DNA from: Spirochaetia bacterium
Lineage (GTDB): Bacteria > Spirochaetota > Spirochaetia > SZUA-6 > Bin103
Reading direction: 5' to 3'
DNA length: 64,000 nt
Assembly (NCBI GenBank): GCA_965208575.1
Contig: CBDBOV010000004.1
Coordinates: 1,312,001 to 1,376,000, forward strand
This document shows positions 1 to 54,306 of this stretch, piece after piece. Made by a program: the position numbers and the translations under genes. The stretch's first letter is position 1. Every line of letters begins with the position of its first letter. A model generated the notes under the pieces. It was not told the origin of the DNA and made no database searches. It worked only from the letters and a program-made list of their open reading frames with translations.

Positions 1-1467
<1,467 letters not shown>

Positions 1468-1492
1468 CGGCGCGCCGGTAAGCGCCGCCGGC

Positions 1493-1526
1493 GTCATCGA
1501 CCGGCAGGCCCTTCGGCCTCGATGAC
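1493..1526 (+). terminator. Stem-loop after ppdK (no U-tract)
   Basis: GTCATCG...AGGCC-CTTC-GGCCT-CGATGAC inverted repeat about 25 nt after the stop. Confidence 0.35.
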
Positions 1527-1688
1527 CTGGCGATTCACCCGCCCAGCGGGTCGCACCCGGCCGGCGTGCGCACCGCCGTTGCCGTTGGCAGAGGCTGCCG
1601 GGGCATGTGCCGCCTCCACTCCCAGCTCCTGGTAACGGCACATTCGGGTCTACTGGAATGATCGGTCGAAGCATGGTATCCTGGCGCC

Positions 1689-2693
1689 ATGGCTGAGTAC
1701 CGCGCCGCCGCCGTGCCGCGCCCGGTCAGGCGCGCGACGCCGCCCTTGGAGTTTCCCGGCTGCCGGGCGGTGCGCATTGCGCGCGCCGACATCGAGCGCT
1801 GCGAACGCCGCATCGAGTACTGGGACGCCGCCACCGAGACCGCCATGATTTGCGATCCGGTCAGCGTCTACCACGAACACCCGGGCCAGCGCCTGCGCGA
1901 GCTCGCCACCCGCATCGCCCAGGTGCGCGGCTCGCCGATCGAGACGTTCGGCGCGGCCGACCTCCTGCTGCGCGATGCCGACGGCGCCTGGCGGCGCATC
2001 CTGGAGGCGGACCAGACCGTCTACCTGCACCCGCGCACCACGCGGCCACAAGGCGCCCGGATCGAAGTGGGCACCGACGCGCTGCCGGACGTGGTGCTGG
2101 AGGTGGACAACACCACCGACGTGCGCCGCGGCAAGCTGTCGCTGTACGAGTCGTGGGGCTTCCCGGAGGTGTGGGTGGAGGTGCCCGAGCAGTCCTCGCC
2201 GAGCCGCCCGGCGGCGCTGCGCCCCGGCCTGACGATCTACCTGCTCGAGGAAGGCCGCTTTCGCACCGCGCCCGCCAGCCGCGCCTTTGCGGGCTGGACG
2301 GCGGCGGAGATCCACCAAGCGCTGAACGAGCCGGAGCTGTCGGACGCCTCCATGGCCGTGTTGCGCAGCATCGGACGAACACTGGGCGCGGCGCTGGGAA
2401 CCGGTCCGGACGACGACCCGCTGCTGCGCACCGAGCGCCGGGAGAGTCGCGCCGAGGGCCTTGTCGCAGGCCGGACAGCGGGACACGCGGAAGGCCGGAC
2501 CGCGGCGCGCGCGGCGACGCAACGGGAGGCCGTCCTGCAGGTGTTGCAGTCGCGCGGCCTGCCGGTGTCCGCGGCGTTCCCCCGCCACCTGGCGCAATTG
2601 CAGGGCGTCTCCACCGCGGCATTGGTTCAGGCCGCGCTGGACTGCCGCGACGAGGACGACTTCCTGCGGCGGACTCGCACCAAACAACACTGA
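1689..2693 (+). CDS. Uma2 (DUF820)-like PD-(D/E)XK putative endonuclease, copy 1
   Basis: RIEYWD, P...HE, EADQTVY, PDVVLEVD, K..LY...GFPEVW pattern; C-terminal AEG-type repeats and a helical tail. Confidence 0.8.
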   Translation: MAEYRAAAVPRPVRRATPPLEFPGCRAVRIARADIERCERRIEYWDAATETAMICDPVSVYHEHPGQRLRELATRIAQVRGSPIETFGAADLLLRDADGAWRRILEADQTVYLHPRTTRPQGARIEVGTDALPDVVLEVDNTTDVRRGKLSLYESWGFPEVWVEVPEQSSPSRPAALRPGLTIYLLEEGRFRTAPASRAFAGWTAAEIHQALNEPELSDASMAVLRSIGRTLGAALGTGPDDDPLLRTERRESRAEGLVAGRTAGHAEGRTAARAATQREAVLQVLQSRGLPVSAAFPRHLAQLQGVSTAALVQAALDCRDEDDFLRRTRTKQH

Positions 2694-2957
2694 AGCGCCC
2701 GACGTTCAAGTGACCCGCTCGCGGCAGGCGCTGCGCTGAGTTCTCAGCACCGGCCCGCAGTCGAGCATCGTGGCAGAAGATGCCGCCACCCGAACGGCGG
2801 TACTGGACCGGCTGCCGCCGTTGCAGCGAGGCACGGCGCCACTCAACTTGCAACTGGGGAAGCACGAAGCGACGGCGACGACGCGGTAGCCCAGATCCCT
2901 TGTACCGCATAATCGGGTCTACTGGAATGATCGGTCGAACCGTGGTATCCTCGTGCC

Positions 2958-3938
2958 TTGGCTGAGTACCGTGCCGCCGCCGTGCCGCGCCCGGTCAGGC
3001 GCGCGACGCCGCGGTTGGAGTTTCCCGGCTGCCGGCCGGTGCGCATTACGCGCGCCGACATCGCCGACTACGAGCGCCGCATCGAGTACTGGGACGCCGC
3101 CACCGAGACCGCCATGGTGTGCGATCCGGTCAGCGTCTACCACGAACAACCGGGGCAAGCGTTGGCGCGGCTGCTCCAGACCATCGCCCACTTACGCGGC
3201 GCGCCCATTGCCACCTTCGGCGCCGCCGACCTCCTGCTGCGCGATGCCGACGGCGCCTGGCGGCGCATCCTGGAGGCGGACCAGACCGTCTACCTGCACC
3301 CGCGCACCACGCGGCCCCCGGGTGCCCGGATCGAAGTGGGCACCGACACGCTGCCGGACGTGGTACTGGAGGTGGACAACACCACCGACGTGCGCCGCGG
3401 CAAGCTGGCGCTGTACGAGTCGTGGGGCTTCCCGGAGGTGTGGGTGGAGGTGCCCGAGCAGTCCTCCCCGAGCCGCCCGGCGGGCCTGCGCCCCGGCCTG
3501 ACGATCTACCTGCTCGAGGAAGGCCGCTTTCGCACCGCGCCCGCCAGCCGCGCCTTTGCGGGCTGGACGGCGGCGGAGATCCACCAAGCGCTGAACGAGC
3601 CGGAGCTGTCGGACGCCACCATGGCCGTACTGCGCAGGATCGGACGAACGCTGGGTGCGGCGCTGGGAACCGGCCCGGACGACGACCCGCTGCTGCGCAC
3701 CGAGCGCCGGGAGAGTCGCGCCGAGGGCCATACAGCAGGCCGGACCGAGGCGCGCGCGGCGACACAGCGGGATGCCGTCCTGCAGGTGTTGCAGTCGCGC
3801 GGCCTGCCGGTGTCCGCGGCGTTCCCCCGCCACCTGGCGCGCTTGCAGGGCGTCTCCACCGCGGCGTTGGTAGAGGCCGCGCTGCACTGCCGCGACCAGG
3901 ACGACTTCCTGCGGCGGACTCGCCCGAAACAACACTGA
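2958..3938 (+). CDS. Uma2-like putative endonuclease, copy 2 (TTG start)
   Basis: Paralog of copy 1 with the same motifs. Confidence 0.8.
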   Translation: MAEYRAAAVPRPVRRATPRLEFPGCRPVRITRADIADYERRIEYWDAATETAMVCDPVSVYHEQPGQALARLLQTIAHLRGAPIATFGAADLLLRDADGAWRRILEADQTVYLHPRTTRPPGARIEVGTDTLPDVVLEVDNTTDVRRGKLALYESWGFPEVWVEVPEQSSPSRPAGLRPGLTIYLLEEGRFRTAPASRAFAGWTAAEIHQALNEPELSDATMAVLRRIGRTLGAALGTGPDDDPLLRTERRESRAEGHTAGRTEARAATQRDAVLQVLQSRGLPVSAAFPRHLARLQGVSTAALVEAALHCRDQDDFLRRTRPKQH

Positions 3939-4014
3939 AGCGTCGGGCGTTCACGTGGCCCGCTCGCGGCAGGCGCTGAGTTCTCAGCATCGGCCGGTCA
4001 CCCAGCGCCGTGAC

Positions 4015-4265
4015 TCAGTAGCGGTACGTGGTCTTGAAATTCGCGGCGTGTTCGGGCAGGGAGTGCGCGCGCTCGCGCCGTTCTCCAGACAACTCGACGT
4101 CCAGGGCGGCTGACGACGCCCTGAAACGGGTGCCGAGCCGCACGTGGCTCGCGCCGTCGGCGAGCCCTGCCTCGGTGAAAGGCGTGAACACCCCCCACGG
4201 CGAGGCGAAACCATAGCCGATGCTCGCTTCGAGCGAACCGGTCTCGGCGCCCATGCTTGCCGTAA
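4015..4265 (-). pseudogene. 3'-end fragment of an autotransporter/beta-barrel-like outer-membrane protein gene
   Basis: Reads ...LEASIGYGFASPWGVFTPFTEAGLADGASHVRLGTRF...FKTTYRY-stop: amphipathic beta-strands and a terminal aromatic residue; no 5' part. Confidence 0.55.
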
Positions 4266-4400
4266 CAGCGAGTTGCCGCGCCACTCCGCTGGCAACTGGG
4301 GGAAGCACGAAGCGACGGCGACGACCCGGTAACCCAGCTCCCGCGTACCGCATACTCGGGCCTGCTGGAATGATCGGTCGAGACATGGTATCCTCGTGCC

Positions 4401-5357
4401 ATGGCTGAGTACTGCGCCGCCGCCGTGCCGCGCCCGGTCAGGCGCGCGACGCCGCCCTTGGAGTTTCCCGGCTGCCGGGCGGTGCGTATTTCGCGCGACG
4501 ACCTCGAACGCTGCGAGCGCCGTATCGAGTACTGGGACGCCGCCACCGAGACCGCCATGATTTGCGATCCGGTCAGCGTCTACCACGAACACCCGGGCCA
4601 GCGCCTGCGCGAGCTGGCCACCCGCATCGCCCTGGTGCGCGGCTCGCCGATCGAGACGTTCGGCGCCGCCGACCTCCTGCTGCGCGATGCCGACGGCGCC
4701 TGGCTGCGCATCCTGGAGGCGGACCAGACCGTCTACCTGCACCCACGCACCACGCGGCCACCGGGCGCCAGGATCGAGGTGGGCAGCGACACGCTGCCCG
4801 ACGTGGTGCTGGAGGTGGACAACACCACCGACGTGCGCCGCGGCAAGCTGGCGCTGTACGAGTCGTGGGGCTTCCCGGAGGTGTGGGTCGAGGTGCCCGA
4901 GCAGTCCTCCCCAAGCCGCCCGGCGGGCCTGCGCCCCGGCTTGACGATCCACCTGCGGGAGGGCGGCGCTTTTCGCACCGCCGCGCACAGCCGGGCCTTC
5001 GCGGGCTGGACGGCGCCGGAAATCCACCGCGCGCTGAACGAGCCGGAGTTGTCGCACGCCACCCTGGCCGCGCTCCGGCGCGTGGGGCGCGCGCTCGGCG
5101 CGGCCGCGGGCACCGGGCCGGACGACGACCCGCAGATGCGCACCGAGCGCCGGGAAAGCCGCGCCGCGGGCCGGGTGGAGACACAGCGGGAGGCCGTGCT
5201 GCAGGTGCTGCAGTCGCGCGGCCTGCCGGTGTCCGCCGCGTTCCCGCGGCGCCTGGCGGAGTTGCAGCCCGTGTCCACCGCCGCACTGGTTCGGGCGGCT
5301 CTGGAGTGCCGCGACGAGGACGACTTCCTGCGGCGCACTGGCACGAAACAACACTGA
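4401..5357 (+). CDS. Uma2-like putative endonuclease, copy 3
   Basis: Paralog of copy 1; most divergent in the C-terminal half. Confidence 0.8.
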   Translation: MAEYCAAAVPRPVRRATPPLEFPGCRAVRISRDDLERCERRIEYWDAATETAMICDPVSVYHEHPGQRLRELATRIALVRGSPIETFGAADLLLRDADGAWLRILEADQTVYLHPRTTRPPGARIEVGSDTLPDVVLEVDNTTDVRRGKLALYESWGFPEVWVEVPEQSSPSRPAGLRPGLTIHLREGGAFRTAAHSRAFAGWTAPEIHRALNEPELSHATLAALRRVGRALGAAAGTGPDDDPQMRTERRESRAAGRVETQREAVLQVLQSRGLPVSAAFPRRLAELQPVSTAALVRAALECRDEDDFLRRTGTKQH

Positions 5358-5416
5358 AGCGCCGGCGCACTCGATTCTACTGGAATGATCGGTCGAAGCT
5401 ATGGTACCCTCGTGCC

Positions 5417-6385
5417 GTGGCTGAGTACCGTGCCGCCGCCGTGCCGCGCCCGGTCAAGCGCGCGACGCCGCGGTTGGAGTTTCCCGGCTGCCGGCCGGTG
5501 CACATTGCGCGCGCCGACATTGAGCGCTGTGAGCGCCGCATCGAGTACTGGGACGCCGCCACCGAAACCGCGATGATTTGCGATCCGGTCAGCGTCTACC
5601 ACGAACATGCTGGGCAACGCCTACGCGAGTTGCTGACGCTGATTGCGCAGGTGCGAGGTTCGCCGATTGCTACTTTCGGCGCCGCCGACCTCTTGCTGCG
5701 CGATGCCGACGGCGCCTGGCGGCGCATCCTGGAGGCCGACCAGACCGTCTACCTGCACCCGCGCACCACGCGGCCACAAGGCGCCCGGATCGAAGTGGGC
5801 GCCGACACGCTGCCCGACGTGGTGCTGGAGGTGGACAACACCACCGACGTGCGCCGCGGCAAGCTGGCGCTGTACGAGTCGTGGGGCTTCCCGGAGGTGT
5901 GGGTGGAGGTGCCCGAGCGGTCCTCCCCGAGCCGCCCGGCGGGCCTGCGCCCCGGCCTGACGATCTACCTGCTCGAGGAAGGCCGCTTTCGCACCGCGCC
6001 CGCCAGCCGCGCCTTTGCGGGCTGGACGGCGGCGGAGATCCACCAAGCGCTGAACGAGCCGGAGCTGTCGGACGCCTCCATGGCCGTGTTGCGCAGGATC
6101 GGACGAGCGCTCGGTGCGCCCCTCGGCACCGGGCCGGACGACGACCCGCTGCTGCGCACCGAGCGCCGGGAAAGTCGCGCCGAAGGCCGGACCGAGGCGC
6201 GCGTGGAGACACAGCGGGAGGCCGTGCTGCAGGTGTTGCAGTCGCGCGGCCTGCCGGTCTCGGCGGCGCTTCCCCGCCACCTGGCGCAATTGCAGGGCGT
6301 CCCCACCGCCACGCTGGTAGAGGCCGCGCTGCGCTGCCGCGACGAGGACGACTTCCTCCGCCGGACTCGCACGAAACAACGCTGA
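5417..6385 (+). CDS. Uma2-like putative endonuclease, copy 4 (GTG start)
   Basis: Start placed by alignment with the other copies; lies within track ORF 4562..6385. Confidence 0.8.
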   Translation: MAEYRAAAVPRPVKRATPRLEFPGCRPVHIARADIERCERRIEYWDAATETAMICDPVSVYHEHAGQRLRELLTLIAQVRGSPIATFGAADLLLRDADGAWRRILEADQTVYLHPRTTRPQGARIEVGADTLPDVVLEVDNTTDVRRGKLALYESWGFPEVWVEVPERSSPSRPAGLRPGLTIYLLEEGRFRTAPASRAFAGWTAAEIHQALNEPELSDASMAVLRRIGRALGAPLGTGPDDDPLLRTERRESRAEGRTEARVETQREAVLQVLQSRGLPVSAALPRHLAQLQGVPTATLVEAALRCRDEDDFLRRTRTKQR

Positions 6386-6540
6386 ACCGCCCGTATTCAA
6401 GCGGCCCGGCTCACGGCAGGCGCTGCGCTGCCATTGCCGATCCGCGTATTCGCGAACCCGTCGGTGAACGAGGAATGGGCTTGGGTGAGCCTATTCGGAC
6501 CTACTGGAATGATCGGTCGAGCCCGTTGTATCCTCGTGCC

Positions 6541-7521
6541 ATGGCTGAGTACCGCACTGCCGCCGTGCCGCGCCCGGTCAGGCGCGCGACGCCGCCCTTG
6601 GAGTTTCCCGGCTGCCGGCCGGTACCCATGTCGCGCAACGAGATCGAACACTGCGAGCGCCGTATCGAGTACTGGGACGCCACCACCGAGACCGCCATGA
6701 TTTGCGATCCGGTCAGCGTCTACCACGAACACGCTGGGCAACGCCTACGCGAGTTGCTGACGCTGATTGCGCAGGTGCGAGGATCGCCGATTGCTACTTT
6801 CGGCGCCGCCGACCTCTTGTTGCGCGATGCCGACGGCGCCTGGCGACGTATCCTGGAGGCCGACCAGACCGTCTACCTGCACCCGCGCACCACGCGGCCA
6901 CAAGGCGCCCGGATCGAAGTGGGCAGCGACACGCTGCCCGACGTGGTGCTGGAAGTGGACAACACCACCGACGTGCGCCGCGGCAAGCTGTCGCTGTACG
7001 AGTCGTGGGGCTTCCCGGAGGTGTGGGTCGAGGTGCCCGAGCAGTCCTCCCCGAGCCGCCCGGCGGGCCTGCGCCCCGGCTTGACGATCCACCTGCTGGA
7101 GGAGGGCGGCTTTCGCACCGCGCCCGCCAGCCGCGCCTTTCCGGGCTGGACGGCGGCTGAGATCCACCAAGCGCTGAACGAGCCGGAGCTGTCGGACGCC
7201 ACCATGGCCGTGTTGCGCGGCATCGGACGAACGCTTGGTGCAGCGCTGGGAACCGGCCCGGACGACGACCCGCTGCTGCGCTCCGAGCGCCGGGAAAGTC
7301 GTGCCGAGGGCCATGCAGCAGGCCGGACCGAGGCGCGCGCGGCGACACAGCGGGATGCCGTGCTGCAGGTGTTGCAGTCGCGCGGCCTGCCGGTGTCCGC
7401 GGCGCTTCCCCGCCACCTGGTGCAGTTGCAGGGCGTCTCCACCGCCACGCTGGTAGAGGCCGCGCTGCACTGCCGCGACGAGGACGACTTCCGCCGCCGG
7501 ACTCGCGGGAAGCAACGCTAA
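6541..7521 (+). CDS. Uma2-like putative endonuclease, copy 5
   Basis: ATG placed by alignment; lies within track ORF 5578..7521. Confidence 0.8.
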   Translation: MAEYRTAAVPRPVRRATPPLEFPGCRPVPMSRNEIEHCERRIEYWDATTETAMICDPVSVYHEHAGQRLRELLTLIAQVRGSPIATFGAADLLLRDADGAWRRILEADQTVYLHPRTTRPQGARIEVGSDTLPDVVLEVDNTTDVRRGKLSLYESWGFPEVWVEVPEQSSPSRPAGLRPGLTIHLLEEGGFRTAPASRAFPGWTAAEIHQALNEPELSDATMAVLRGIGRTLGAALGTGPDDDPLLRSERRESRAEGHAAGRTEARAATQRDAVLQVLQSRGLPVSAALPRHLVQLQGVSTATLVEAALHCRDEDDFRRRTRGKQR

Positions 7522-7854
7522 ACCGCCGGTATTCAAGTGGCCCGGCTCACGGCAGGCGCTGCGCTGCCACTGCCGATCCGCGTATTCGCGAACCCGGGAA
7601 AGCAGGTACCTGCGCTTCCATCTCCACCGCGCGGTCCTGCACAATGGCATCCACCGTCCCGGATCGATAGATGCGCTCGGCAAGCAGACGATCATAGGCG
7701 CGGCTAAAGCCGCGGCAACCTGTCCTCGGACCCGGCACGCGCACATCCTGATCTATCCTGACAAGTCGGACACGTCGGTGAACGAGGAATGGGCTTGGGT
7801 GGGCCTATTCGAGCCTACTGGAATGATCGGTCGAAGCTATGGTATCCTCGTGCC

Positions 7855-8811
7855 ATGGCTGAGTACCGCGCCGCCGCCGTCCCGCGCCCGGTCAAACGCG
7901 AGATGCCGCCCTTGGAGTTTCCCGGCTGCCGGGCGGTGCGCATTGCGCGCGCCGACCTTGAACGCTGCGAGCGCCGCATCGAGTACTGGGACGCCGCCAC
8001 CGAGACCGCCATGGTGTGCGATCCGGTCAGCGTCTACCACGAACAACCGGGCCAGGTGTTGGCGAGGCTGCTCGGGACCATCGCGCACGTGCGCGGCGCG
8101 CCCATTGCCACCTTCGGCGCGGCCGACCTCCTGCTGCGCGATGCCGACGGCTCTTGGCGGCGCATCCTGGAGGCGGACCAGACCGTCTACCTGCACCCGC
8201 GCACCACGCGGCCACAAGGCGCCCGGATCGAAGTGGGCACCGACACGCTGCCGGACGTGGTGCTGGAAGTGGACAACACCACCGACGTGCGCCGCGGCAA
8301 GCTGGCGCTGTACGAGTCGTGGGGCTTCCCGGAGGTGTGGGTCGAGGTGCCCGAGCAGTCCTCCCCGAGCCGCCCGGCGGGCCTGCGCCCCGGCTTGACG
8401 ATCTACCTGCTGGAGCAAGGGAGCTTTCGCACCGCGCCGGACAGCCGCGCCTTTGCGGGCTGGACGGCGGCGGAGATCCACCAAGCGCTGAACGAGCCCG
8501 AGCTGTCGGCAGCCACCATGGCCGTGTTGCGCAGGATCGGACGAGCGCTGGGGGCGGCGCTGGGAACCGGGCCGGACGACGACCCACTGCTGCGCTCCGA
8601 GCGCCGGGAGAGTCGGATCGCAGGCCGCGTGGAAACACAGCGGGAGGCCGTGCTGCAGGTGTTGAAGTTGCGCGGCCTGCCGGTCTCGGCTGCGCTTTCC
8701 CGCCACTTGGCGCAGTTGCAAGGCGTCTCTACCGCGGCGTTGGTGGAGGCCGCGCTGCACTACCGCGACGAGGCCGACTTCCTGCGGCGCACTCGCAGCA
8801 AACAACGCTGA
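7855..8811 (+). CDS. Uma2-like putative endonuclease, copy 6
   Basis: ATG placed by alignment; lies within track ORF 7789..8811. Confidence 0.8.
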   Translation: MAEYRAAAVPRPVKREMPPLEFPGCRAVRIARADLERCERRIEYWDAATETAMVCDPVSVYHEQPGQVLARLLGTIAHVRGAPIATFGAADLLLRDADGSWRRILEADQTVYLHPRTTRPQGARIEVGTDTLPDVVLEVDNTTDVRRGKLALYESWGFPEVWVEVPEQSSPSRPAGLRPGLTIYLLEQGSFRTAPDSRAFAGWTAAEIHQALNEPELSAATMAVLRRIGRALGAALGTGPDDDPLLRSERRESRIAGRVETQREAVLQVLKLRGLPVSAALSRHLAQLQGVSTAALVEAALHYRDEADFLRRTRSKQR

Positions 8812-8872
8812 AGCGCTGGTATTCAAGTGGCCCGGCTACTCGCGCGACGCCGCCGGAACGGAGGCCGATCGC

Positions 8873-8901
8873 TTGCTTGGAGTCCGTTAGCTCGCTATTC
8901 T
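8873..8901 (+). promoter_or_regulatory. Sigma-70-like promoter
   Basis: TTGCTT-17 bp-TATTCT, followed by GGAGG (8932) and ATG (8944). Confidence 0.5.
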
Positions 8902-9031
8902 ATGCAACACGAAAGCGCGTTAGGGCGAGTTGGAGGTATGTCGATGAGTAGCCCCCAACCGAGCAGTGCGTCTCGGCGCCGAGATACAGTTCCACGTTGG
9001 TAACGAGGAATGGGGGCCCGGGCAAGCCTGC

Positions 9032-9060
9032 GCCAGCCGCCGCCGAGGCGGACGGCTGGC
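9032..9060. terminator. Strong GC hairpin between the array and the convergent sigma gene
   Basis: GCCAGCCG-CCGCC-GA-GGCGG-A-CGGCTGGC; no U-tract. Confidence 0.45.
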
Positions 9061-9079
9061 ACACGACTCAGGACAAGCT

Positions 9080-9982
9080 TCAGGCCGAGTTGGCGAAGGC
9101 CTCCAGATGTTGGCTTCGGGAGGGGTGGCGCAGGCGGCGCAGGGCCTTCTTCTCGATCTGTCGGATGCGCTCCTTGGTGAGCGAGTAGCGCGAGCCGATC
9201 TCCTTCAGCGACAGCGGCTGCTTGCCGTTGAGGCCGAAGCGGCGCACGATGATGTCCGCTTCCTTCTCGGTGAGGGTGGCCAGCACCTTGTTGATCTGGT
9301 CCTTCAGCGCGCTGTCGTAGGCTTGGTCCTCGGGCGACTGGTACTCGGTGTCGGCCACGAAGTCGCCGATGCTGGAGGCGTCGCGGTCGGTCCCCACCGG
9401 GCTGTCGAGCGACACCAGGTCACGCGAGATGCTGACCAGCGACTCGACGTGCGCCGGGGCCATGTCCACTTCCTTCGCCACCGAGGCGAGGTTGGGCTCC
9501 GCGGAACGGTCGCCCTGCAACTGCTTGCGGGCCTTCTCGATCTGCACCAGCTCGTTGGCGCGGTTCAGCGGCAGGCGGATCATGCGCGACTTCTCGCACA
9601 CCGCCTTGAGGATCGCCTGGCGGATCCACCACACCGCGTAGGAAATGAAGTGGTATCCCTTGGTAACGTCGAAGCGCTCGACGGCGTTCATCAGGCCGAT
9701 GTTGCCCTCGCTGATCAGGTCGATCAGCGGCAGGCCCTGGTTCTGGTACTTCTTGGCGACGTTGACCACGAAGCGCAGGTTGGCCCGTACCAGGTGTTCC
9801 TTGGCGGCTTCATCGCCGTCGCGGGCACGGGTGGCCAGGTCGACTTCCTGCTCGCGGGTGAGCAGCGGTATCCGGTTGATGTCGCGCAGGTACAACGACA
9901 GCACGCTGTCGTCGCCACTGTCCGTGGTGGAGCGCTGCCGGGTGACGGACTTACGCGCACTGGTAGATTTCCTCTGAGGCAT
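9080..9982 (-). CDS. RNA polymerase sigma-70 factor, short (no region 1.1), RpoS/SigA-like
   Basis: LYLRDINRIPLL, NLRFVVNVAKKY, DLISEGNIGL, FISYAVWWIRQAI, LTKERIRQIEKKAL. Confidence 0.93.
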   Translation of the reverse strand: MPQRKSTSARKSVTRQRSTTDSGDDSVLSLYLRDINRIPLLTREQEVDLATRARDGDEAAKEHLVRANLRFVVNVAKKYQNQGLPLIDLISEGNIGLMNAVERFDVTKGYHFISYAVWWIRQAILKAVCEKSRMIRLPLNRANELVQIEKARKQLQGDRSAEPNLASVAKEVDMAPAHVESLVSISRDLVSLDSPVGTDRDASSIGDFVADTEYQSPEDQAYDSALKDQINKVLATLTEKEADIIVRRFGLNGKQPLSLKEIGSRYSLTKERIRQIEKKALRRLRHPSRSQHLEAFANSA

Positions 9983-10015
9983 AGTTCTTTTCTCTTCCTG
10001 TTTCGGAAGTCGTTA

Positions 10016-10032
10016 AGCAATTTCCATGCCAA
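10016..10032 (-). promoter_or_regulatory. Sigma-54 (-24/-12) promoter of the sigma-70 gene
   Basis: Minus strand TTGGCATGGAAATTGCT: GG-N10-GC matching TGGCAC-N5-TTGCW, about 35 nt upstream of the ATG. Confidence 0.75.
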
Positions 10033-10136
10033 CATTCACCGGCCGCTCCGGTGCCACCTATTTATTTACTATATAAAATCTTAACGAATGACGACAGCAG
10101 CCTGCTCAGGTCACCGTGTCTTGTGCGGTGGGTAAC

Positions 10137-10178
10137 AATGACACAGTTGGCAGGCACCTGTCAGCGAACTGTGTCATT
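10137..10178. promoter_or_regulatory. Perfect 12-bp inverted repeat; candidate enhancer/operator or terminator
   Basis: AATGACACAGTT-N18-AACTGTGTCATT. Confidence 0.5.
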
Positions 10179-10239
10179 CTGATCCAGTACCGGTGCGCCC
10201 GCCGGGGAGAATGCGCCCAAAGTACGCCATGACAACGCC

Positions 10240-10938
10240 TCAGGAGCCGATGGCGACCTCTTCACTGGCCGGAACGCGTCCACAACAGAGCGCGTATGGC
10301 AATGCGCTGCCACACACGCAGGGATCGGCCGCCGACGGACGGCGCCCGCGCACGAAGTCCACGGCGATGGTGTTGCCGGGCGGCTCGCTTGGCAGGCGCA
10401 ACAGCGGGAACGGTATCCGCATGTTCATGAACAGTTCGCGCCGCTGCTCGGTGCTCAGACCCTCCAGCACGCCGCGACGCAGCAACTCGGTGAAATGGCC
10501 CCACAACAGGTCGCGCAGCATGTCCGATTCGGCGGGGCCAAGCGGCAGCCGTCCGCCGACGACGACGTAGCGGGAGAGTTGCAGCGAATGGAATGCCCGC
10601 CAGTCGTCCAGAATCCGGTGGTGCTGGCGCGGCATGCCGTAGTCGTTGCTGCAGCGGCGAATGAGGCGCGCCAGCCGCGCCTGCTTGCGGGTCCGCTGCG
10701 CATCCACCCAGCAACGCAGCGCGGCATCGCGGCGGCCCAGGCGCGCACAGGCGAACCCCAGCGCGCGAAGCGCGGCCGCCAGTTCCGAGCGCGCGTCGGC
10801 GGGACACTCGGCCACGGCGGCGGTGAGCAGTTGCAGGGCCTTGCGGTTGCGGTGACGCCGCAGAGCGCGCCTCCCGTTGCGGAACTGTTGCCGCGACAAC
10901 TGTCGCCGCCTCGGCGCCGTCCGGCGTGGCTCTCCCAC
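10240..10938 (-). CDS. Hypothetical protein with TPR-like N-terminus and C-terminal SEC-C motif
   Basis: DPCVCGSALPYALCCG matches the SEC-C zinc motif. Confidence 0.7.
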   Translation of the reverse strand: MGEPRRTAPRRRQLSRQQFRNGRRALRRHRNRKALQLLTAAVAECPADARSELAAALRALGFACARLGRRDAALRCWVDAQRTRKQARLARLIRRCSNDYGMPRQHHRILDDWRAFHSLQLSRYVVVGGRLPLGPAESDMLRDLLWGHFTELLRRGVLEGLSTEQRRELFMNMRIPFPLLRLPSEPPGNTIAVDFVRGRRPSAADPCVCGSALPYALCCGRVPASEEVAIGS

Positions 10939-11005
10939 GCCCCGAAGATACCTAGCTCATCGTCCGCAGGCTACCGCGACCGGCCCCGGCGCGGCGCGGT
11001 TTCGG

Positions 11006-11035
11006 TTGACGCCAATTTCGCCGCGTCCTTATATT
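11006..11035 (+). promoter_or_regulatory. Sigma-70 promoter of groES
   Basis: TTGACG-18 bp-TATATT; SD GGAGG before the ATG. Confidence 0.6.
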
Positions 11036-11093
11036 GCGCGCGAGCCTTACACATCAAATCAACTTCATTTATTGCTCACAGGAGGGTATAGCC

Positions 11094-11357
11094 ATGACCA
11101 TCAAGCCTCTCGGTGATCGCGTACTGGTCAAGGTCGAAGAAGCGGACCAGAAGACGGCCGGCGGTATCTACATTCCGGATACGGCGCAGGAAAAGACCCA
11201 GAACGGGGTCGTTCTGGCGATCGGCGACGACGAGGAGATCACCGTCAAGGTCGACGACAAGATCATCTACGACAAGTACGCGGGCACCACGGTCAAGGTG
11301 GGCGACGAGGAGCAGTTGATCCTCAAGGCCGCGGACATCCTGGCGGTGTTCAGCTAG
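11094..11357 (+). CDS. groES: Co-chaperonin GroES (no adjacent groEL)
   Basis: MTIKPLGDRVLVK...TAGGIYIPDTAQEK...KYAGT. Confidence 0.97.
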   Translation: MTIKPLGDRVLVKVEEADQKTAGGIYIPDTAQEKTQNGVVLAIGDDEEITVKVDDKIIYDKYAGTTVKVGDEEQLILKAADILAVFS

Positions 11358-11393
11358 AGCCCGCTCCCCGTCAAGAAGCTCGTCTTCTTCAAG

Positions 11394-11421
11394 AAGCCCG
11401 TCAATGCGACGGGCTTTTTTT
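11394..11421 (+). terminator. Rho-independent terminator of groES (possibly bidirectional)
   Basis: AAGCCCGTC-AATGC-GACGGGCTT followed by a T-run. Confidence 0.85.
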
Positions 11422-13986
11422 CTGCCCGCCCGACTCGTCCGCTGCCGTCCCCTCGAACCCGAGGAACTCGCGCACCCGGTCCACCAGTTCCGCCCCCGGC
11501 GCGGTTTCCAGGCGTACGTCCGGCAGCGAGCGCAGAAACGCCGCCCCGTAGCTCTTGCGTGCCAGCCGCACGTCGAGGAACAGCACCACGCCGCGGTCGT
11601 CGTGCCGCCGGATCAGGCGGCCGAACCCCTGCCGCACGCGCATCACGGCGCGCGGCAGCGTGAGCGCCAGGAACGGGTCGGCGCCGCTCTGCGCCACCCG
11701 CGCCATCTGTGCCGCGGCCACCGGGTGGCTCGGAACCGAGAACGGCAGGCGGCAGATCACCACCAGGCTGAGCGCTTCGCCCGGCGCGTCGATGCCCTCC
11801 CAGAACGAATCGGTTGCCAGCAGCACGCTCGCGGTGTCGCCGCGGAACCGGTCCAGCAGGCGGTGGCGGTCGTCGTCGCCCTGGCGCAGGACGGTGATGC
11901 CGGCGGCCGCCAGCGGTTCCTGGAGCTGGCGAAACGAACGGTCCAGCATCGCGTACGAGGTGAACAGCACCAACGCCCGCCCGCGGCTGGCGCGCAGCAC
12001 CGCGACCAGGTAGCGGCCGAGCCACGCCTGGTGTTCGGCGGCGGTGGGCTCCGGGGCATCGATCGGGATGCCGGCCAGCGCCTGCTCCCGGTACGCGAAC
12101 GGCGACGGATACTGCTCGGTGAATACCGGCCGCGAGGTGACCTCGGCCAGCCCCACCCGCCCGCACCAGAACCCGAAGTCGCCGGCAACGGTCAGCGTCG
12201 CCGAGGTCAGCACCACGCTCGGATAGCGGTCGAAAATCGCCGCCCGCATCAGCGGCGCCACCTCCACCGGTGTCACCACGAGCCGCGCCGCCGCCGTGCC
12301 GTCGCGGCGGCGGAAACCCTCCACCCAGCGCACGGCGTTGCCCGCCAGTTGGCCATCCGCGCGTGCCGGCACGCTGCCCAGGCGCTCGCACAGCCCGGCG
12401 GCGGCGCGCATGCGGCGCGCCTGAATACGCAGTTCCACCGCATCGGCGTCATCGCGGTCCGCCGGCTCGGCGGCATCCAGCGCCGCCGACACCGCACCGG
12501 CGAGGCTCGCCAGCGTTGCCCCGGTCGCCTCCAGCGTTTCCACCAGGCCGCGGTCGCCCGGCACGTCCAACACCGCCGCCGGTTCGCCGACGAGCTGGCG
12601 CGCGGCGGCGCGCTCCAGCCGGCCGGCCAGGCGGCGCAACTGTTCCACCTGCGCCACTACCGCGCCCAGATCTCGGCCGGCGCCGATGAACCAGTCAGCG
12701 CGGCGCGGCACCAGCCCGTGTTGCCCGCCGAGTCGTCCGCCACGGCTGCCGCCGAGTCGTCCGCCACGGCTGCCGCCGTGGCGGGCGCTGACCAGCCGGC
12801 CGGCAAGTCGTTCCAGCCCGGTGCGCGCGAGCCGCTGCGAAAAGAACGAGGCGGCGTTGCTCTCGATGGCGTGCGCTTCGTCGAACACGATGCGCCGGAA
12901 CCCCGGCAGCACGGCCGCGCTGGCCAGGGCTTCGCGCCCGCCGCCGCCCGCCAGGCGGATCGCCAGGTCGGCGAACAGCAGGTGGTGGTTCACCACCAGC
13001 AGGCGTGCCGCCGCCGCCTCGCGGCGGGCGCGCAGCACGAAGCACGCCTCCCGGTCGGGGCAGCGCAGCGCGTTGCAGGCATCGCCCTCCGAACACACCA
13101 AGTCCCAGGTGGCGCCGGCGGTCGCAAACGGCAGGTCGCTGCGGCTGCCGGTGGGGCTGGCCAGCGACCACTCGTAGATGGCGCGCACCTCGGCGGCGGC
13201 GTGTGGGTCGAGCGCACCCTCCGCGATGGCCGCGGGCAGGCCCTGCGCGTCGGCATGCACCTCGCGCAGGCGGCGCAGACACAGGTAGTTGCCGCGCCCC
13301 TTGACCAGGCAGCTCTTCACGTCGGTGCCGAGCATGCGCTGCACCAGGGGCAGATCCTGCGCCATGAGCTGCTGCTGCAGGTTGATGGTGGCCGTGGACA
13401 CCACCACCCGCTCGTCGTTGGCGTCCGCCCACGCCACCGCCGGTACCAGGTAGGCGAGCGACTTGCCGATGCCGGTGCCCGCCTCGGCCGCCACGATCAC
13501 CTCGTCGTTGAACGCGTCGCATGCCGCCTGCAGGAGCGAGACCTGGCCCGCCCGCTGCTCGAACCCCGGGTGCAGCCGGTGCAGGGCGCCGCCCGCGCGC
13601 AGCGTGGCGGCCAGCGCGCGCGTGTCGAGCGGCCTGCGCTCGCGGCGCGGCGCCGGTTCGGCGACCACGTAGATGCGCGACACCGCATTGTCGACGATGC
13701 AGAACCCCTTGCCCTGGTCGCCCACCCAGCCGGCGACGGCGAGGTCCGCCTCGCTCGGCTGCAGCAGTCCCGAGGGATGGTTGTGAATCAGCAGGTCGGC
13801 GCCGTCGACGTAGGGGGCGAGTACCGGCACTTCGCGGTCGTTGCCGCGCGCGGCGATGGTCACGCTGCGCACCAGGCCGCCGGTATCGCAGTTGCCGACG
13901 CAGAACACCTCGCGGCCATCCGCCTCCGCGATGGCGTCGCGCAGCGTGCCGGCCGCCGCCGGCGTAAACCAGGCGCCGATCTCCAT
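11401..13986 (-). CDS. DinG/YoaA-family ATP-dependent helicase with N-terminal JAB/RadC-like domain
   Basis: HNHPSG...PSEADL JAB motif; EAGTGIGKS, KGRGNYLC, DEAH, TSATL, SFWEGIDAPG, QGFGRLIR. Confidence 0.9.
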   Translation of the reverse strand: MEIGAWFTPAAAGTLRDAIAEADGREVFCVGNCDTGGLVRSVTIAARGNDREVPVLAPYVDGADLLIHNHPSGLLQPSEADLAVAGWVGDQGKGFCIVDNAVSRIYVVAEPAPRRERRPLDTRALAATLRAGGALHRLHPGFEQRAGQVSLLQAACDAFNDEVIVAAEAGTGIGKSLAYLVPAVAWADANDERVVVSTATINLQQQLMAQDLPLVQRMLGTDVKSCLVKGRGNYLCLRRLREVHADAQGLPAAIAEGALDPHAAAEVRAIYEWSLASPTGSRSDLPFATAGATWDLVCSEGDACNALRCPDREACFVLRARREAAAARLLVVNHHLLFADLAIRLAGGGGREALASAAVLPGFRRIVFDEAHAIESNAASFFSQRLARTGLERLAGRLVSARHGGSRGGRLGGSRGGRLGGQHGLVPRRADWFIGAGRDLGAVVAQVEQLRRLAGRLERAAARQLVGEPAAVLDVPGDRGLVETLEATGATLASLAGAVSAALDAAEPADRDDADAVELRIQARRMRAAAGLCERLGSVPARADGQLAGNAVRWVEGFRRRDGTAAARLVVTPVEVAPLMRAAIFDRYPSVVLTSATLTVAGDFGFWCGRVGLAEVTSRPVFTEQYPSPFAYREQALAGIPIDAPEPTAAEHQAWLGRYLVAVLRASRGRALVLFTSYAMLDRSFRQLQEPLAAAGITVLRQGDDDRHRLLDRFRGDTASVLLATDSFWEGIDAPGEALSLVVICRLPFSVPSHPVAAAQMARVAQSGADPFLALTLPRAVMRVRQGFGRLIRRHDDRGVVLFLDVRLARKSYGAAFLRSLPDVRLETAPGAELVDRVREFLGFEGTAADESGGQKKSPSH
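12725..12778. repeat. 24-bp in-frame tandem repeat (GGSRGGRL x2) inside the helicase gene
   Basis: CCGCCGAGTCGTCCGCCACGGCTG twice plus a partial copy. Confidence 0.85.
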
Positions 13987-14167
13987 CGGGCGCCGGTCGC
14001 CGCTCCTTCTCATCCGTCCTGGCTCCTGGCGCGCATCGGGTGCTGGCACTCTATGGCGTGCGCTGGCCATAGACAAGCTCCTACAGAGCGTGGACACACG
14101 GCCGCGCGGACGCACCGGTGTTGACCCGGACGGCGCCGGCATAGTACTCATAGCGCTACATCACAGG

Positions 14168-50926: not shown

Positions 50927-51215
50927 GCTGACTCATACCTCTGATCGCGCGATTCCCGAAACCGACCGAATCGGCCTCGACGAAACGTGATCCGTCCACC
51001 GGCGCACCGCCGCGCCGGGTGGCAACGCCGAACCGGCAACCGTGACTCCGGCAGCAGAGTAGCCTTCCTGCCCTCGTACATCAATACAACGCATTGACTC
51101 ATCGAAAATCTAACCGTAGCGAAAGCATGCCTCATCTAAAAATCTAACCGAACGGGCTGGACCTTCCGGGTCCGGTTGGAGCCTCTCCGAGGGACGTGAG
51201 GAGGTTCCGGAGGAG

Positions 51216-52490
51216 ATGGGGTTGAAGATGAGTTCAAGGCGAGAGCTCACCGAGCAGCACGCGCAGCGGTATCGTCGGGCGGGCAAGAAGGAGAAGGGGC
51301 GCATACTCGACGAGTTCGTCGAGTCGACCGGGTACCAGCGCAAGTACGCGATCCATCTGTTGACCTGGTGGGGACGGACCCGCATGGTGCGAGTCGACGG
51401 CACACTGGTGAAGCTGGTGGTCGGGCGTCCGCGGCCTGCCCAGCGCCGCGTGCGACCGCGGCGCTACGACCAGGAGGTGCTGGTCGCTCTGAAGCTGATC
51501 TGGTACGTGTTCGACTGCATGTGCGGCAAGCGCCTGGTGGTCGTGCTGCGCACCATGCTGCCGACGCTGGAGTCGTTCGGCGAGATCGAGCTGACCGCAG
51601 CGGTGCGCGGCAAGCTGCAGACCATCAGCGCCGCGACCATCGACCGGCTGCTGCAGCAGGAGCGCGCACGGCTGCGCCTGAAGGGTCGCACGCACACCAA
51701 GCCGGGCACCCTCCTGAAGGATCAGATCGCGATCCGAACCTTCGCTGACTGGGACGAGCAGGAGCCGGGCTTCTTCGAGATCGACTTGGTGGGCCATGAA
51801 GGCGGCAACGCGTCAGGCGACTTCTGCCACACGCTCACCATCACCGACGTTGACACCGGCTGGGTCGACCTGTACGGCGTGCAGAACAAGGCGCAGCGCT
51901 GGACCCACGAGGCGATCGACGCTGCCCGGCAGAGCCTGCCGATCGTGATGCGGGGGATCGACACCGACAACGGCAGCGAGTTCATCAATCATCATTTGCT
52001 GCGCTATTGCGAAGCGCACGGCATCACGTTCACTCGGGGTCGCCCGCATCGCAAGAACGACACCTGCTACGTCGAGCAGAAGAATGGCCACGTGGTGCGA
52101 CGGGCGGTCGGCCACCTGCGTTACGACACCGACCGGGAACTGGCTGCCCTCAACGCGATATACCGCCCGCTGTGCCTGCTGGTGAACTTCTTCTATCCCT
52201 CGGTGAAGCTGGTGAAGAAAACCCGCACCGGCAGCAAGGTGCGCCGCATCTATGACGACCCGCAGACGCCGTATCACCGCATGCTGGCCTCCGAGTCGGT
52301 GAGCGAGAAGGTGAAGAACCGCCTCAAGCAGCAGTACGCGACGTTGAATCCGGTCGCCCTCAAGCGCGAGCTGACCAGGTTGACCGAGGATCTGCTGCAG
52401 CTGAACGTCAGCAAGACCGCCAAGGCCGCACCAAGCACGGTGCAAACACCGAGCGAGGAGCGTGGTGGCAGCGGTCGCACGGCAAAATGA
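51216..52490 (+). CDS. DDE (rve/integrase-core) transposase, ISNCY-like
   Basis: RY..A.KKEKGRILDEF N-terminus; EIDLVGH, IDTDNGSEF, VEQKN catalytic D-D-E. Confidence 0.9.
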   Translation: MGLKMSSRRELTEQHAQRYRRAGKKEKGRILDEFVESTGYQRKYAIHLLTWWGRTRMVRVDGTLVKLVVGRPRPAQRRVRPRRYDQEVLVALKLIWYVFDCMCGKRLVVVLRTMLPTLESFGEIELTAAVRGKLQTISAATIDRLLQQERARLRLKGRTHTKPGTLLKDQIAIRTFADWDEQEPGFFEIDLVGHEGGNASGDFCHTLTITDVDTGWVDLYGVQNKAQRWTHEAIDAARQSLPIVMRGIDTDNGSEFINHHLLRYCEAHGITFTRGRPHRKNDTCYVEQKNGHVVRRAVGHLRYDTDRELAALNAIYRPLCLLVNFFYPSVKLVKKTRTGSKVRRIYDDPQTPYHRMLASESVSEKVKNRLKQQYATLNPVALKRELTRLTEDLLQLNVSKTAKAAPSTVQTPSEERGGSGRTAK

Positions 52491-52614
52491 CCCTCTCAGG
52501 CGGGTCTGACGGTCGATAATCGGAGAATGGGCGGTCAGCGATGAGAAAACGTCGCCTCAGCCGCGCTGTAAGGCCCCTCCACGACACGAGGTGGTGTCTG
52601 GATACCCCCGTGTC
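52480..52614 (+). repeat. Diverged direct repeat, copy A
   Basis: Shares GGCAAA(A)TGAC...GTCGCCTCAGCCGCGCTGTAAGGCC...GACACGAGGTGGTGTCTGGA...CCCCGTGTC with 54455..54586. Confidence 0.85.
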
Positions 52615-52632
52615 TATGCATAACCATGCAAT

Positions 52633-54306
52633 TCAGTGCAACTTTATCCGCGACCGTAAGCCGGGTGGCGGAGTCCCGGTGCCGTCCCTGCAGTGCCTCG
52701 GCGAGGCGATTGCGGACCGCTGCCAGCCGGCTGCGTACCCGCCTGATGCTCTTTTCCAGGGCCCGGCGCACCGGTTCACGACCCGTGCGTCGGGCTCCGG
52801 CGGCGCAAGGTCATGGCTCGGCAGCGCGTCAAGGTTGAACTGCTCGCGCAGGTACTTGAAGAAGTTCTCCTGCGACCAGCGCGAGAACATGGCGCCGGCG
52901 ACCTGCGCCAACGGCATCTGCGGGTGCGTGGTGATCACCGCCACCTGACGACCGTTGGCCAGACGCCGCCGGATCTGGCGCACCACCAGCCCGTTGCGCA
53001 GCATGATCGGCTGCTCGGCCAGATCAACCGCAGTCGTGCTGGTGCCGGCGGGACCATGGATCGGTACCTCGAAGGTGTGGAAGTCTTCCGGCAGCCAGTC
53101 CGCGCCGTTGAAGTTCTTGTGCCAGGTGATGCAGGCGATGCCACGCCGGGCCAGGCGCTTGAACAGGTCCGGGCTCCAGCCCTCGCGGTCGAACACCAGG
53201 GTCAGCTGCGGGGTACCGGCCGGTGCTCCGGTCAGGTCGGGGGCCGCTTCGGTCACCACCCCCAGGTGCTGCAACTGCGGCACCACGTCGTGCTTGATCG
53301 CATTCACCGGCTTCGGGTCCAGCGCCTTGTGCAGGCACAGCAGCGGTGCGCCGCCGAGGGCGTTGATCCAGTAGCTCACCGACGCCGGCAGACACAGCTT
53401 CTGGCGTGCGACGAAGTGTTTCGGCAACCGCCCGTTGCGCCCGGTGTACACCTTCACGTGGCCATCCACGGCCAGCGTCGTCCAGTCGTCGTCGTGCTCG
53501 CTGGCCCAGGTACGCGCCAGTACCGATTGCCAATCGCGCACGGTGTGCTCGGCGCTGGCCAGCAGCCTGATCTTGCGGCGCAGCGTCTTGGTCTCCGGAC
53601 AGCGGTCGAGGCCGAGGATGGCGCCCCACTCGCCGGGTGCCTGGTAGCGCAGGCTCTCGGGGTTGCGCACCCGGGCCAGGGTCATGCAGGCGACGAACAG
53701 GAGGATGGTGGTCAGGCCGTAGAATCCGGCCGGCAGGCGGAACAGGCGGTTGGCGGCGGTGAGCAGGCCCTCGCGCAGCAGCATCGCCAGTGCGGCCAGC
53801 ACGCCGCCGCCAGCGACCGCGTGGGCGGGCTCGACGAACGCTGGTGTGGCCTCGGTCAGCAGGCCGGCTCTGGCGAGCGTGCGGCGTTCCACGTCGCGCG
53901 CCGCGCGGCCCATGGGCGCGTGCTTGTCGCGGGCGTCGCGGCTGGCGCGCTCAGTGGCGACCGCCGGGTCGCTGACCGCGGCGGCGGTGCTGACCGGGTG
54001 ATCAGTGGTGGTGGCCGCCGGCGCAACCTCGGCGCTGGCGGCGGGCTCCCGGGTGGGATCTGTGATGACGCCGGCGCGGCGGTTCTCGTTGAAGGTGCTC
54101 ACCGGGATGCCGAGTTCGCGAGCGCAGGCTGAGCCGCTCATCCCGGAAGCGAGCAGCTTGGCTGCCTGGTCCGCCATCTCGGCGTCGTCCACGGTGGCCT
54201 CCACGGCACCGCGCCGGCTGACTCCGGTCGGGCTACGCCCTCCGTCCGTCAGCGGGGTACAGCATCTCCTCCGCCCCGTTCGATCCCGACGGCTCCGGTG
54301 TCGCAA
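52633..54306 (-). pseudogene. Frameshifted/truncated large putative transposase
   Basis: N-terminal HTH, VDGHVKVY, FDREGWS, RWSQENFFKY; 1-nt frameshift near 52772 (VVN continues as RRALEKSIRR in another frame); C-terminus missing. Confidence 0.75.

Follow-up and report, generated by a model that had tools for sequence, protein, structure and literature searches.

Six tandem Uma2-type nuclease genes of a Spirochaetia bacterium: a probable local-duplication array with class-structured mosaicism

How did six similar genes come to stand in a row in a bacterial genome, and why were all of them kept? The question is raised by a stretch of 64,000 nt from a Spirochaetia bacterium (assembly GCA_965208575.1, contig CBDBOV010000004.1, positions 1,312,001 to 1,376,000 of the forward strand; the whole stretch is called the window here), in which six paralogous genes follow one another between ppdK, encoding pyruvate, phosphate dikinase, and the gene for a sigma-70 family sigma factor. 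A first inspection of the letters alone, referred to as the original prediction, had taken them for Uma2-like nuclease genes, each forming with its flanks a self-contained cassette that accumulates at this locus and drags in foreign DNA, either as a diversifying nuclease defence array or as a nuclease-driven mobile element. From the analysis described here we consider it probable that the locus is an old array of local duplications, which is under purifying selection and undergoes gene conversion with protected specificity segments, and that it is not a mobile cassette.

Age, selection and mosaicism of the six copies

The genes, named g1 to g6, and the two genes flanking them are listed here; the helix class refers to codons 54-90 and is explained below.

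1..1467, plus strand: 3' part of ppdK (pyruvate, phosphate dikinase), left flank; C-terminal 488 aa, TIGR01828 with 730.6 bits, domains PEP-utilizers and PEP-utilizers_C
1689-2693, plus strand: g1, 334 aa, ATG start, helix class A (codons 54-90 at 1848-1958)
2958-3938, plus strand: g2, 326 aa, TTG start, helix class C (3117-3227); basis of the structure models
4401-5357, plus strand: g3, 318 aa, ATG start, helix class A (4560-4670), without extra repeats
5417-6385, plus strand: g4, 322 aa, GTG start, helix class B (5576-5686)
6541-7521, plus strand: g5, 326 aa, ATG start, helix class B (6700-6810)
7855-8811, plus strand: g6, 318 aa, ATG start, helix class C (8014-8124), without extra repeats
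9080-10012, minus strand: sigma-70 family sigma factor gene, right flank; Sigma70 r1_2, r2, r3 and r4, RpoD/RpoS-type models

All six are intact, co-oriented paralogues of 318-334 aa on the plus strand. The original prediction had described them in this way and had given a range of 59-462 bp for the gaps; coordinates, identities and the domain models of the flanking genes confirmed the former, and the measured gaps (264, 462, 59, 155 and 333 bp, in order) the latter. The proteins g2-g6 were 87-92% identical to g1, nucleotide identity among the copy pairs was 85.4-93.1%, and 231 of 1002 alignment columns were variable. No further copy was found within the 64 kb, since the tblastn matches comprised g1-g6 only. 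The G+C content of the window is about 70%.

The family to which these proteins belong comprised 3517 proteins at E ≤ 0.001 among 8000 candidates scored, which formed 893 clusters at 50% identity. Source names were few, namely "hypothetical protein" from metagenome-assembled genomes (MAGs) of Spirochaetaceae and a single "Uma2 family endonuclease". A tree was built from 61 proteins, the six window copies and 55 close relatives. The window copies did not form one clade: four label changes were needed, and the starred branches force at least three of them. Copy g3 fell into a 99% clade together with eight proteins from other genomes. Since paralogue lineages are thus common to other genomes, we concluded that the array is old. 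The idea that units are accumulating at this locus was not upheld by this result, which describes an old rather than a freshly growing array.

The ratio of non-synonymous to synonymous divergence (dN/dS) was 0.19-0.44 in all 15 pairs, at a synonymous divergence (dS) of 0.14-0.33, and the ratio of the respective proportions of differences (pN/pS) did not exceed 0.83 in any 20-codon window. Judged by these ratios, all six copies are under purifying selection. For the supposed diversification this meant a divided outcome: the discrete helix classes and the variable repeat number described below spoke for it, and purifying selection together with the lack of any 20-codon window above a pN/pS of 0.83 spoke against it.

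Synonymous divergence was distributed unevenly along the gene, with a value of 0 at codons 141-160 and of 0.53 at codons 61-80. The 84 informative sites fell into 21 partitions, and 1819 of 3486 site pairs were incompatible with each other. When a test similar to the pairwise homoplasy index (PHI) was applied, none of 2000 permutations matched the observed clustering. Taken together, the uneven synonymous divergence, the incompatible sites and the PHI-like test led us to conclude that the copies are mosaics. Codons 141-160, just past the catalytic motif (2109-2168 in g1), showed 0 synonymous and 8 non-synonymous differences over the 15 pairs. This pattern points either to conversion that took place very recently or to a nucleotide-level constraint.

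To see the conversion across genomes, the first 141 codons of the window copies were compared with those of two tandem copies, L001a and L001b, from another Spirochaetia MAG of chromosome level (L001). Codons 1-53 and 91-141 clustered by genome: L001a and L001b were 93.7% and 96.7% identical to each other in these two parts, and identity between window and L001 copies was 79-89.5%. Codons 54-90, which encode helix alpha-1, clustered by class instead. Here L001a was 86.5-87.4% identical to g2 and g6, L001b was 87.4% identical to g1 and g3, and L001a and L001b had only 76.6% identity to each other. A survey of 123 sequences, made up of the 6 window copies, the 2 copies of L001 and 115 others, assigned 120 of them to four motif classes, with 48 in class C, 31 in B, 27 in A and 14 in D. 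Along the array the class order is A, C, A, B, B, C, and several helix classes also occur within single genomes, for which contigs of equal length served as a proxy. Conversion thus appears to homogenise the gene yet to spare codons 54-90, and this points to selection for keeping the types apart.

In the course of events that we favor, the array would be fixed in the chromosome and would have grown by successive local tandem duplications with different breakpoints. Gene conversion would homogenise most of the gene within a genome, helix alpha-1 and the number of repeats in the C-terminal part would escape it, and the six copies would represent a maintained repertoire of non-equivalent enzymes. 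Concerted multigene families with protected variable segments are known from other systems, an example being the shuffling of specificity subunits in Type I restriction systems. The array resembles such families in that conversion seems to homogenise most of the gene and discrete segments persist. It differs from them by having no invertase, no shufflon and no silent cassettes, and its six copies appear to be expressed units.

Nuclease domain, C-terminal repeat helix and possible function

The assignment to Uma2 made in the original prediction was met by conflicting results. Scores to the Pfam model PF05685 (Uma2) were 17.2-23.5 bits, and none of the six window proteins reached the cut-off of 27, which spoke against the assignment. 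A match at E ≤ 1 was obtained for all 46 aligned relatives, the best with 9.3e-09, and one relative (L004) scored 29.9 bits, above the cut-off. The structure prediction that had been proposed as a check of the fold was carried out with AlphaFold2 on g2, using the 46-sequence alignment. The model had a mean predicted local distance difference test score (pLDDT) of 91.6 and a predicted template modelling score (pTM) of 0.80. In a Foldseek search of the PDB, ranks 1-6 were all Uma2/DUF820 proteins (6okh, 9y1l with two chains, 3ot2 and 1wdj), with E values of 4.9e-07 to 3.2e-03 and template modelling (TM) scores on the target of 0.57-0.72. Residues D108, P133, E138, V139 and D140 were invariant in the 46 aligned relatives; D134, K149 and E63 were conserved in at least 90% of them. 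According to the model, the N-terminal domain (residues ~25-195) adopts the PD-(D/E)XK fold of Uma2/DUF820, and its PD-ExD-K active site is intact. Because of the fold match we regard the Uma2 assignment as confirmed despite the Pfam scores below the cut-off. In NCBIfam, three copies gave only a sub-threshold match to FliH (18.5 bits, cut-off 180), which we attributed to the composition of the repeats.

Uma2 proteins are described as putative nucleases of unknown function in the cited passages of PMC551604 and PMC1274311, and expansions without known function are common according to the same passages. In those of PMC551604 (Feder & Bujnicki 2005), a PD-EXD-K variant is described for one COG4636 lineage, Uma2-type genes make up more than 2% of the genes of one cyanobacterium, and tandem Uma2 genes occur, four of them consecutive in one cyanobacterium; the hypothesis of a selfish nuclease was published there for COG4636. 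The array proteins share with this family the fold of the N-terminal domain and an active site in the PD-EXD-K variant, and also, as far as the cited text goes, the character of an expanded, patchily distributed family forming tandem runs. They differ in being about 150 residues longer than the solved Uma2 chains (150-190 residues), in a C-terminal helical module with 4-residue repeats that is predicted to dimerize, and in the run of six genes, whose leaders are conserved and whose mosaicism is structured by class. Both the tandem arrangement of Uma2 genes and the idea of a selfish nuclease have thus been in print since 2005, and the array adds a variant with six genes. No description of such a six-gene run, of the leaders or of class mosaicism was found in the Uma2/COG4636/DUF820/DUF4351 literature, which was surveyed mostly at title level and without supplements.

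Beyond the nuclease domain, the AlphaFold2 model continued with two helices (residues 205-213 and 219-236), then with a long one at 244-280 and three short ones. As modelled, the C-terminal module (residues ~237-326) consists of this long helix and the three short ones behind it. The lengths of the six proteins (318, 322, 326 and 334 aa) are multiples of 4 residues apart, and all of this variation lies within the long helix: the indels among the six copies comprise 4, 8 or 16 residues and fall within helix 244-280. Relative to the shortest repeat tract, found in two copies, one copy has 4, two copies have 8 and one copy has 16 additional residues; the longest tract is that of g1 (~2454-2514). 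In the relative L001a, a 12-nt unit is repeated 10.8 times at the same place.

When residues 236-326 were folded as two copies, the interaction prediction score from aligned errors (ipSAE) was 0.73 in three runs, compared with 0.01 for the best of three controls. The partner had a pLDDT of at least 83, and at least 96% of the contacts agreed between runs. The ipSAE mark was reached by 20 of 30 solved same-chain pairs and by 1 of 23 solved single chains, which are rough counts obtained with an alignment of our own. The modelled interface is symmetric and involves residues 245-280 and 300-310, including the repeat tract. The long helix is thus predicted to be a homodimer interface; the dimer score may reflect likeness to the solved RpnAS dimer.

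Proteins consisting of, or reduced to, parts of this architecture were also seen. Among the predicted proteins from other contigs, 33 short ones corresponded to the C-terminal part alone, and they may be truncated relics. Two others, P0255 and P0264, likewise from other contigs, lack the nuclease core (~52-206) by a clean deletion and have kept the N-terminal tail and the C-terminal module; these could be decay products or free-standing partner proteins. In a homologue from a Vicinamibacterales MAG (L002, 10658-11152) the reading frame is lost directly after the EGRA/EGHA repeat tract, which looks like repeat slippage that gave rise to a frameshifted pseudogene.

A comparable architecture is known from the Rpn proteins, toxin/antitoxin nucleases that have been studied by experiment. 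As stated in the cited passages of Zhong et al. 2023 (PMC10400941), Rpn consists of a PD-(D/E)XK toxin and a C-terminal three-helix module that dimerizes via its long first helix, a variable number of 4-residue repeats in this helix tunes pairing, and Rpn arrays go back to tandem duplication, with neither inverted repeats nor target-site duplications. Measured against these passages, the array proteins and Rpn/RpnS have in common that a small helical module stands C-terminal to a PD-(D/E)XK nuclease, that the long first helix of this module contains variable 4-residue repeats and serves as dimer interface (predicted for the array), that the genes form arrays by tandem duplication (probably so for the array) and lack inverted repeats, and that the distribution across phyla is patchy. 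They differ in the nuclease domain, which is of the Uma2 type in the array and not YhgA-like Transposase_31: PF04754 did not match the window proteins in any scan, and the control RpnA scored 305.9 bits.

On paper, the array proteins resemble the Rpn toxin/antitoxin nucleases in function; by this analogy the C-terminal module would pair and thereby keep in check a DNA endonuclease that may be toxic. Which molecules pair would depend on helix class and repeat number, and several variants could coexist in this way. Homology to Rpn is unproven. The functional part of our reading, a self-restrained and possibly defensive nuclease, is in our view less likely than not. Its extended form holds that this branch of Uma2/DUF820 is the functional counterpart of Rpn, a toxic DNA endonuclease checked by its own dimerization module, with two "address codes" (helix alpha-1 class and repeat number), conversion that refreshes the repertoire, and a likely role in defence against phages or invading DNA. 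This form we regard as doubtful.

Several results count against the functional reading. PF14261 (DUF4351) did not match any of 10 C-terminal fragments; this negative carries little weight, because three genuine E. coli RpnS proteins also gave no match at E ≤ 1. An hhalign comparison with four E. coli RpnS reached a probability of 6.8% (E 0.0053), extending over the repeat tract and the following helix. Foldseek of the C-terminal model against the PDB gave no match at E ≤ 0.001, and the ESM Atlas yielded values of 0.86-0.87 to clusters named or annotated DUF4351, under the line of 0.9. A sequence search of the PDB with the C-terminal profile returned nothing below E = 2.9. A separate small protein produced from an internal start is not evident in the six copies: an in-frame ATG at codon 222 is present in five of them and lacks a well-spaced Shine-Dalgarno sequence, and g3 has an ATG at codon 246. 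The neighbourhood gave no sign of defence, and PADLOC returned only 17-bit matches to one candidate model, PDC-S17, in two of the four copies scanned; the name PDC-S17 was not found in the literature searched. The array is thus a member of the Uma2 fold family, and membership in the Rpn family is not established.

Alternatively, the genes could be an enlarged paralogue family of the usual kind, serving housekeeping or repair; the array would then be a side effect of duplication, and the helix classes would be old subfamilies that have no meaning for pairing or defence. The genes lie among core genes (the neighbours are housekeeping genes such as a DinG-type helicase gene, asd, dapF, uvrB, lon, recJ, clpB and efp), dN/dS nowhere reaches 1, no defence-system match was convincing, and the common Uma2 expansions mentioned above (PMC1274311, PMC551604, passages cited) fit the same picture. 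We nevertheless consider this explanation unlikely. Discrete classes persist across genomes despite homogenised flanking codons, which is hard to explain without selection on the segment; it is precisely in the predicted dimer helix that the 4-residue repeats vary in number; and six intact copies have been retained at a dS of 0.14-0.33.

The array provides a natural set of six near-isogenic variants, which differ mainly in one helix and in repeat count, and with it a concrete, testable model. If the parallel to Rpn were true, it would offer a mechanism for a large orphan family and would mean that the combination of a nuclease with a repeat-tuned dimer module arose in, or was exchanged between, two PD-(D/E)XK lineages. 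If it were false, the locus would still be a clean example of concerted evolution with protected segments.

Leaders, trailers and spacers

Whether the units moved or were duplicated in place should be reflected in their boundaries. The following elements were recognised between and around the six genes.

1643..1688, plus strand: g1 leader; core TGGAATGATCGGTCG at 1654-1668, followed by TGgTATCCT and a spacing of 6 nt before the ATG
2694..2755, plus strand: g1 trailer, 62 nt, 82% common to the g2 trailer
2767..2828, plus strand: ppdK-like relic in the g1-g2 gap, 62 nt, 85% identical to ppdK bases 577-638 in the same orientation; encodes IVAEDAATRTAVLDRLPPLQ
2817..2957, plus strand: g2 extended leader, type A, 85% identical to 4259-4400; core at 2923-2937
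3939..3995, plus strand: g2 trailer, similar to the g1 trailer
4015..4266, minus strand: relic in the g2-g3 gap, corresponding to the 3' end of a gene for an autotransporter beta-barrel; last 83 codons and stop codon (4015-4017)
4259..4400, plus strand: g3 extended leader, type A, 142 nt; core at 4366-4380
5358..5416, plus strand: g3-g4 gap; trailer of ~10 nt joined straight to the g4 leader, core at 5381-5395
6386..6460, plus strand: g4 trailer, type B, 75 nt, 96% identical to 7522-7596
6453..6540, plus strand: g5 leader, type B, 88.6% identical to 7767-7854; core at 6505-6519
7522..7596, plus strand: g5 trailer, type B, 96% identical to the g4 trailer
7597..7766, no strand assigned: 170-bp insert exactly at the junction of g5 trailer and g6 leader, absent from the otherwise equivalent g4-g5 gap
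7767..7854, plus strand: g6 leader, type B; core at 7819-7833
8812..8837, plus strand: remnant of a type B trailer behind g6, 24 nt, 96%

About 46 nt in front of each start codon are conserved in all six copies. The 15-nt core TGGAATGATCGGTCG is exact in every one of them and has no other exact occurrence in the window. With up to 3 mismatches it matched 8 times in the window, compared with 1.57 expected, and none of 100 shuffles reached 8. The leader that the original prediction had placed before every copy was therefore found again, and so were the trailers on five copies (62 nt behind g1 and g2, 75 nt behind g4 and g5, 24 nt behind g6), g3 having only ~10 nt. Two types of trailer exist, one in g1 and g2 and the other in g4 and g5, with the remnant in g6.

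In both the window and L001, the leader follows one pattern: core, 17-18 nt, TGnTAnnnT, 6-7 nt and start codon. The L001 leader reads TGGAATGATCGGTCG ... TGATAGGAT ... ATG and has a core identical to that of the window, at a synonymous divergence (pS) of 0.27-0.42 in the adjacent first 141 codons between window and L001. A Shine-Dalgarno sequence was not found before any of the six window starts. From this arrangement we infer that the leader may act as a promoter giving a leaderless mRNA; each gene has kept its own promoter-like leader. A scan with promoter consensus sequences did not flag the leaders. Copies g2 (TTG, 2958) and g4 (GTG, 5417) have no ATG start, unlike the other four, and should the mRNAs be leaderless, translation of these two copies may be poor.

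Leaders and trailers were considered as possible terminators, attC sites or structured RNAs, and these ideas were dropped, as the folds, that of the short gap included, had z-scores of -0.92 to +1.41 against shuffled sequences. Three terminator-like sites were found compared with 2.6 expected from shuffles, and Rfam gave no match for bases 1-12000 at E ≤ 0.1.

The gaps differ in what lies between trailer and leader. The g4-g5 gap consists of trailer and leader only. The g1-g2 and g2-g3 gaps have a trailer and the 142-nt extended leader (85% identical) in common, and their middles differ. The relic in the g2-g3 gap is 63% identical to residues 305-387 of P0272, a protein of 387 aa with PF03797 (E 8.7e-24); Pfam gave no match for the relic alone, which was recognised only via the search for longer proteins. 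In tblastx comparisons of the spacers with the window and the loci of relatives, most matches were high-GC noise, and the ppdK match alone stood out. The gene-like scraps that had been suspected in the middles of the gaps could thus be identified in two of five gaps, and a third holds the 170-bp insert.

Since the ppdK-like piece matches the adjoining gene at 85% in the same orientation, we concluded that its origin is local. A tandem duplication with its left breakpoint within ppdK, followed by an internal deletion, would leave such a piece in its position and orientation. A duplication with its right breakpoint within a convergent downstream gene would account for the autotransporter piece. 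Both pieces can be understood as remnants of duplication junctions that need no special mechanism. The description of the spacer DNA as foreign was not supported by these results: one scrap is a copy of the gene next door and has kept that gene's orientation, and the autotransporter relic resembles a junction remnant.

Two findings fit less well with local duplication. The source gene of the autotransporter relic is absent from the window, and no other match to P0272 was found at E < 0.4. For the 170-bp insert no source was found; its G+C content is lower (~62%), it contains one open frame whose base composition is coding-like, and its minus strand gave a sigma-70-like promoter match (7718-7691).

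These findings bear on the view that the array consists of selfish or mobile nuclease cassettes, in which the enzyme cuts near its own gene, repair copies the unit of leader, gene and trailer, and foreign DNA is dragged in. The boundaries of the units are indeed sharp, three different and unrelated fillers occupy three of the five trailer/leader junctions, a local source of the autotransporter relic is lacking, members of the family with ~60% identity are found in different phyla and in unrelated surroundings (MAGs of Spirochaetia and Vicinamibacterales), and exactly this behavior was proposed for COG4636 in the cited part of PMC551604. We still judge it quite improbable, as the ppdK filler is local and lies where a tandem duplication would leave it, and as the paralogue lineages are old and under purifying selection. 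For comparable arrays, the Rpn study concluded, in the passages cited, that duplication and not transposition was responsible (PMC10400941).

Features of mobile elements were also missing from the array itself. Inverted repeats bracketing the units were not found: the 25 longest inverted pairs were 74-88% complementary and mostly lay in coding sequence, and none joined a leader to a trailer. Of the features of insertion sequences or transposons, neither terminal inverted repeats nor an adjacent transposase were found; target-site duplications had no dedicated search. With integron gene cassettes the array has in common that co-oriented genes stand in a row and that short conserved sequences mark the unit boundaries. 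It differs from them by the lack of an integrase, of attI and of an attC-like imperfect palindrome (the trailers are unstructured, with the z-scores given above), and in that its genes are all paralogues, each with its own promoter-like leader. The earlier statement that no integrase or reverse transcriptase lies nearby held for ~40 kb, the nearest transposase-type genes being located at 51120-54315. By tblastn, no homologues were found in 72,556 plasmid and 50,697 phage records. Of the self-contained cassette, the unit of leader, gene and trailer with its own promoter-like leader proved real, and inverted repeats, structured trailers, an adjacent recombinase and homologues on plasmids or phages were lacking. 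The mobile-cassette and foreign-DNA interpretation is weakened by these results. By the features examined, the array is neither an integron nor an insertion sequence or transposon.

It is highly improbable that the array is an assembly error, produced by collapsing dispersed paralogues or stringing them together: identical runs of 53-157 nt between copies are enough to mislead a short-read assembler and could have created some of the mosaicism, but the copies differ by 7-15% in nucleotides, every junction is unique, the longest contig with these proteins comprises 1,387,874 nt, and two tandem copies are also present in L001, where the cross-genome pattern argues that the main mosaic signal is real.

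Relatives in other genomes and neighbouring genes

A scan of genome contigs with 590 pattern matches confirmed at least six loci of relatives, and none of the matches listed (six loci) showed synteny with the window locus. The homologues L002-L006 from Acidobacteria/Vicinamibacterales MAGs are single copies with 45-61% identity, and behind the same EGRA repeats the sequence of their C-terminal module is another one. The neighbours of two of them, L004 and L006, are unrelated to each other, with a TonB receptor, RNase H and AcrB in one case and a pyrroloquinoline quinone (PQQ) dehydrogenase and a VWA protein in the other.

Two further observations concern the window outside the array. About 42 kb from it, in an otherwise housekeeping region, a gene with an rve integrase core domain (51120-52490, plus strand) is followed by a Transposase_29 gene (52633-54315, minus strand). 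The DinG-type helicase gene at 11401-14160 (minus strand) scored 381 bits to the PADLOC model of type IV CRISPR-associated DinG; cas genes were not seen in its surroundings, and the protein is probably an ordinary DinG.

The L001 locus (11076-12872) showed peculiarities of its own. Its second copy starts within the stop region of the first (overlap ATGGCTGA) and has no leader. It ends right after the catalytic EVD codons at ~11495, where the G+C content falls. A tyrosine integrase gene (Arm-DNA-bind_3, Phage_int_M and Phage_integrase) begins at 11625, with no tRNA gene nearby, and an integrative element seems to have inserted into this nuclease gene.

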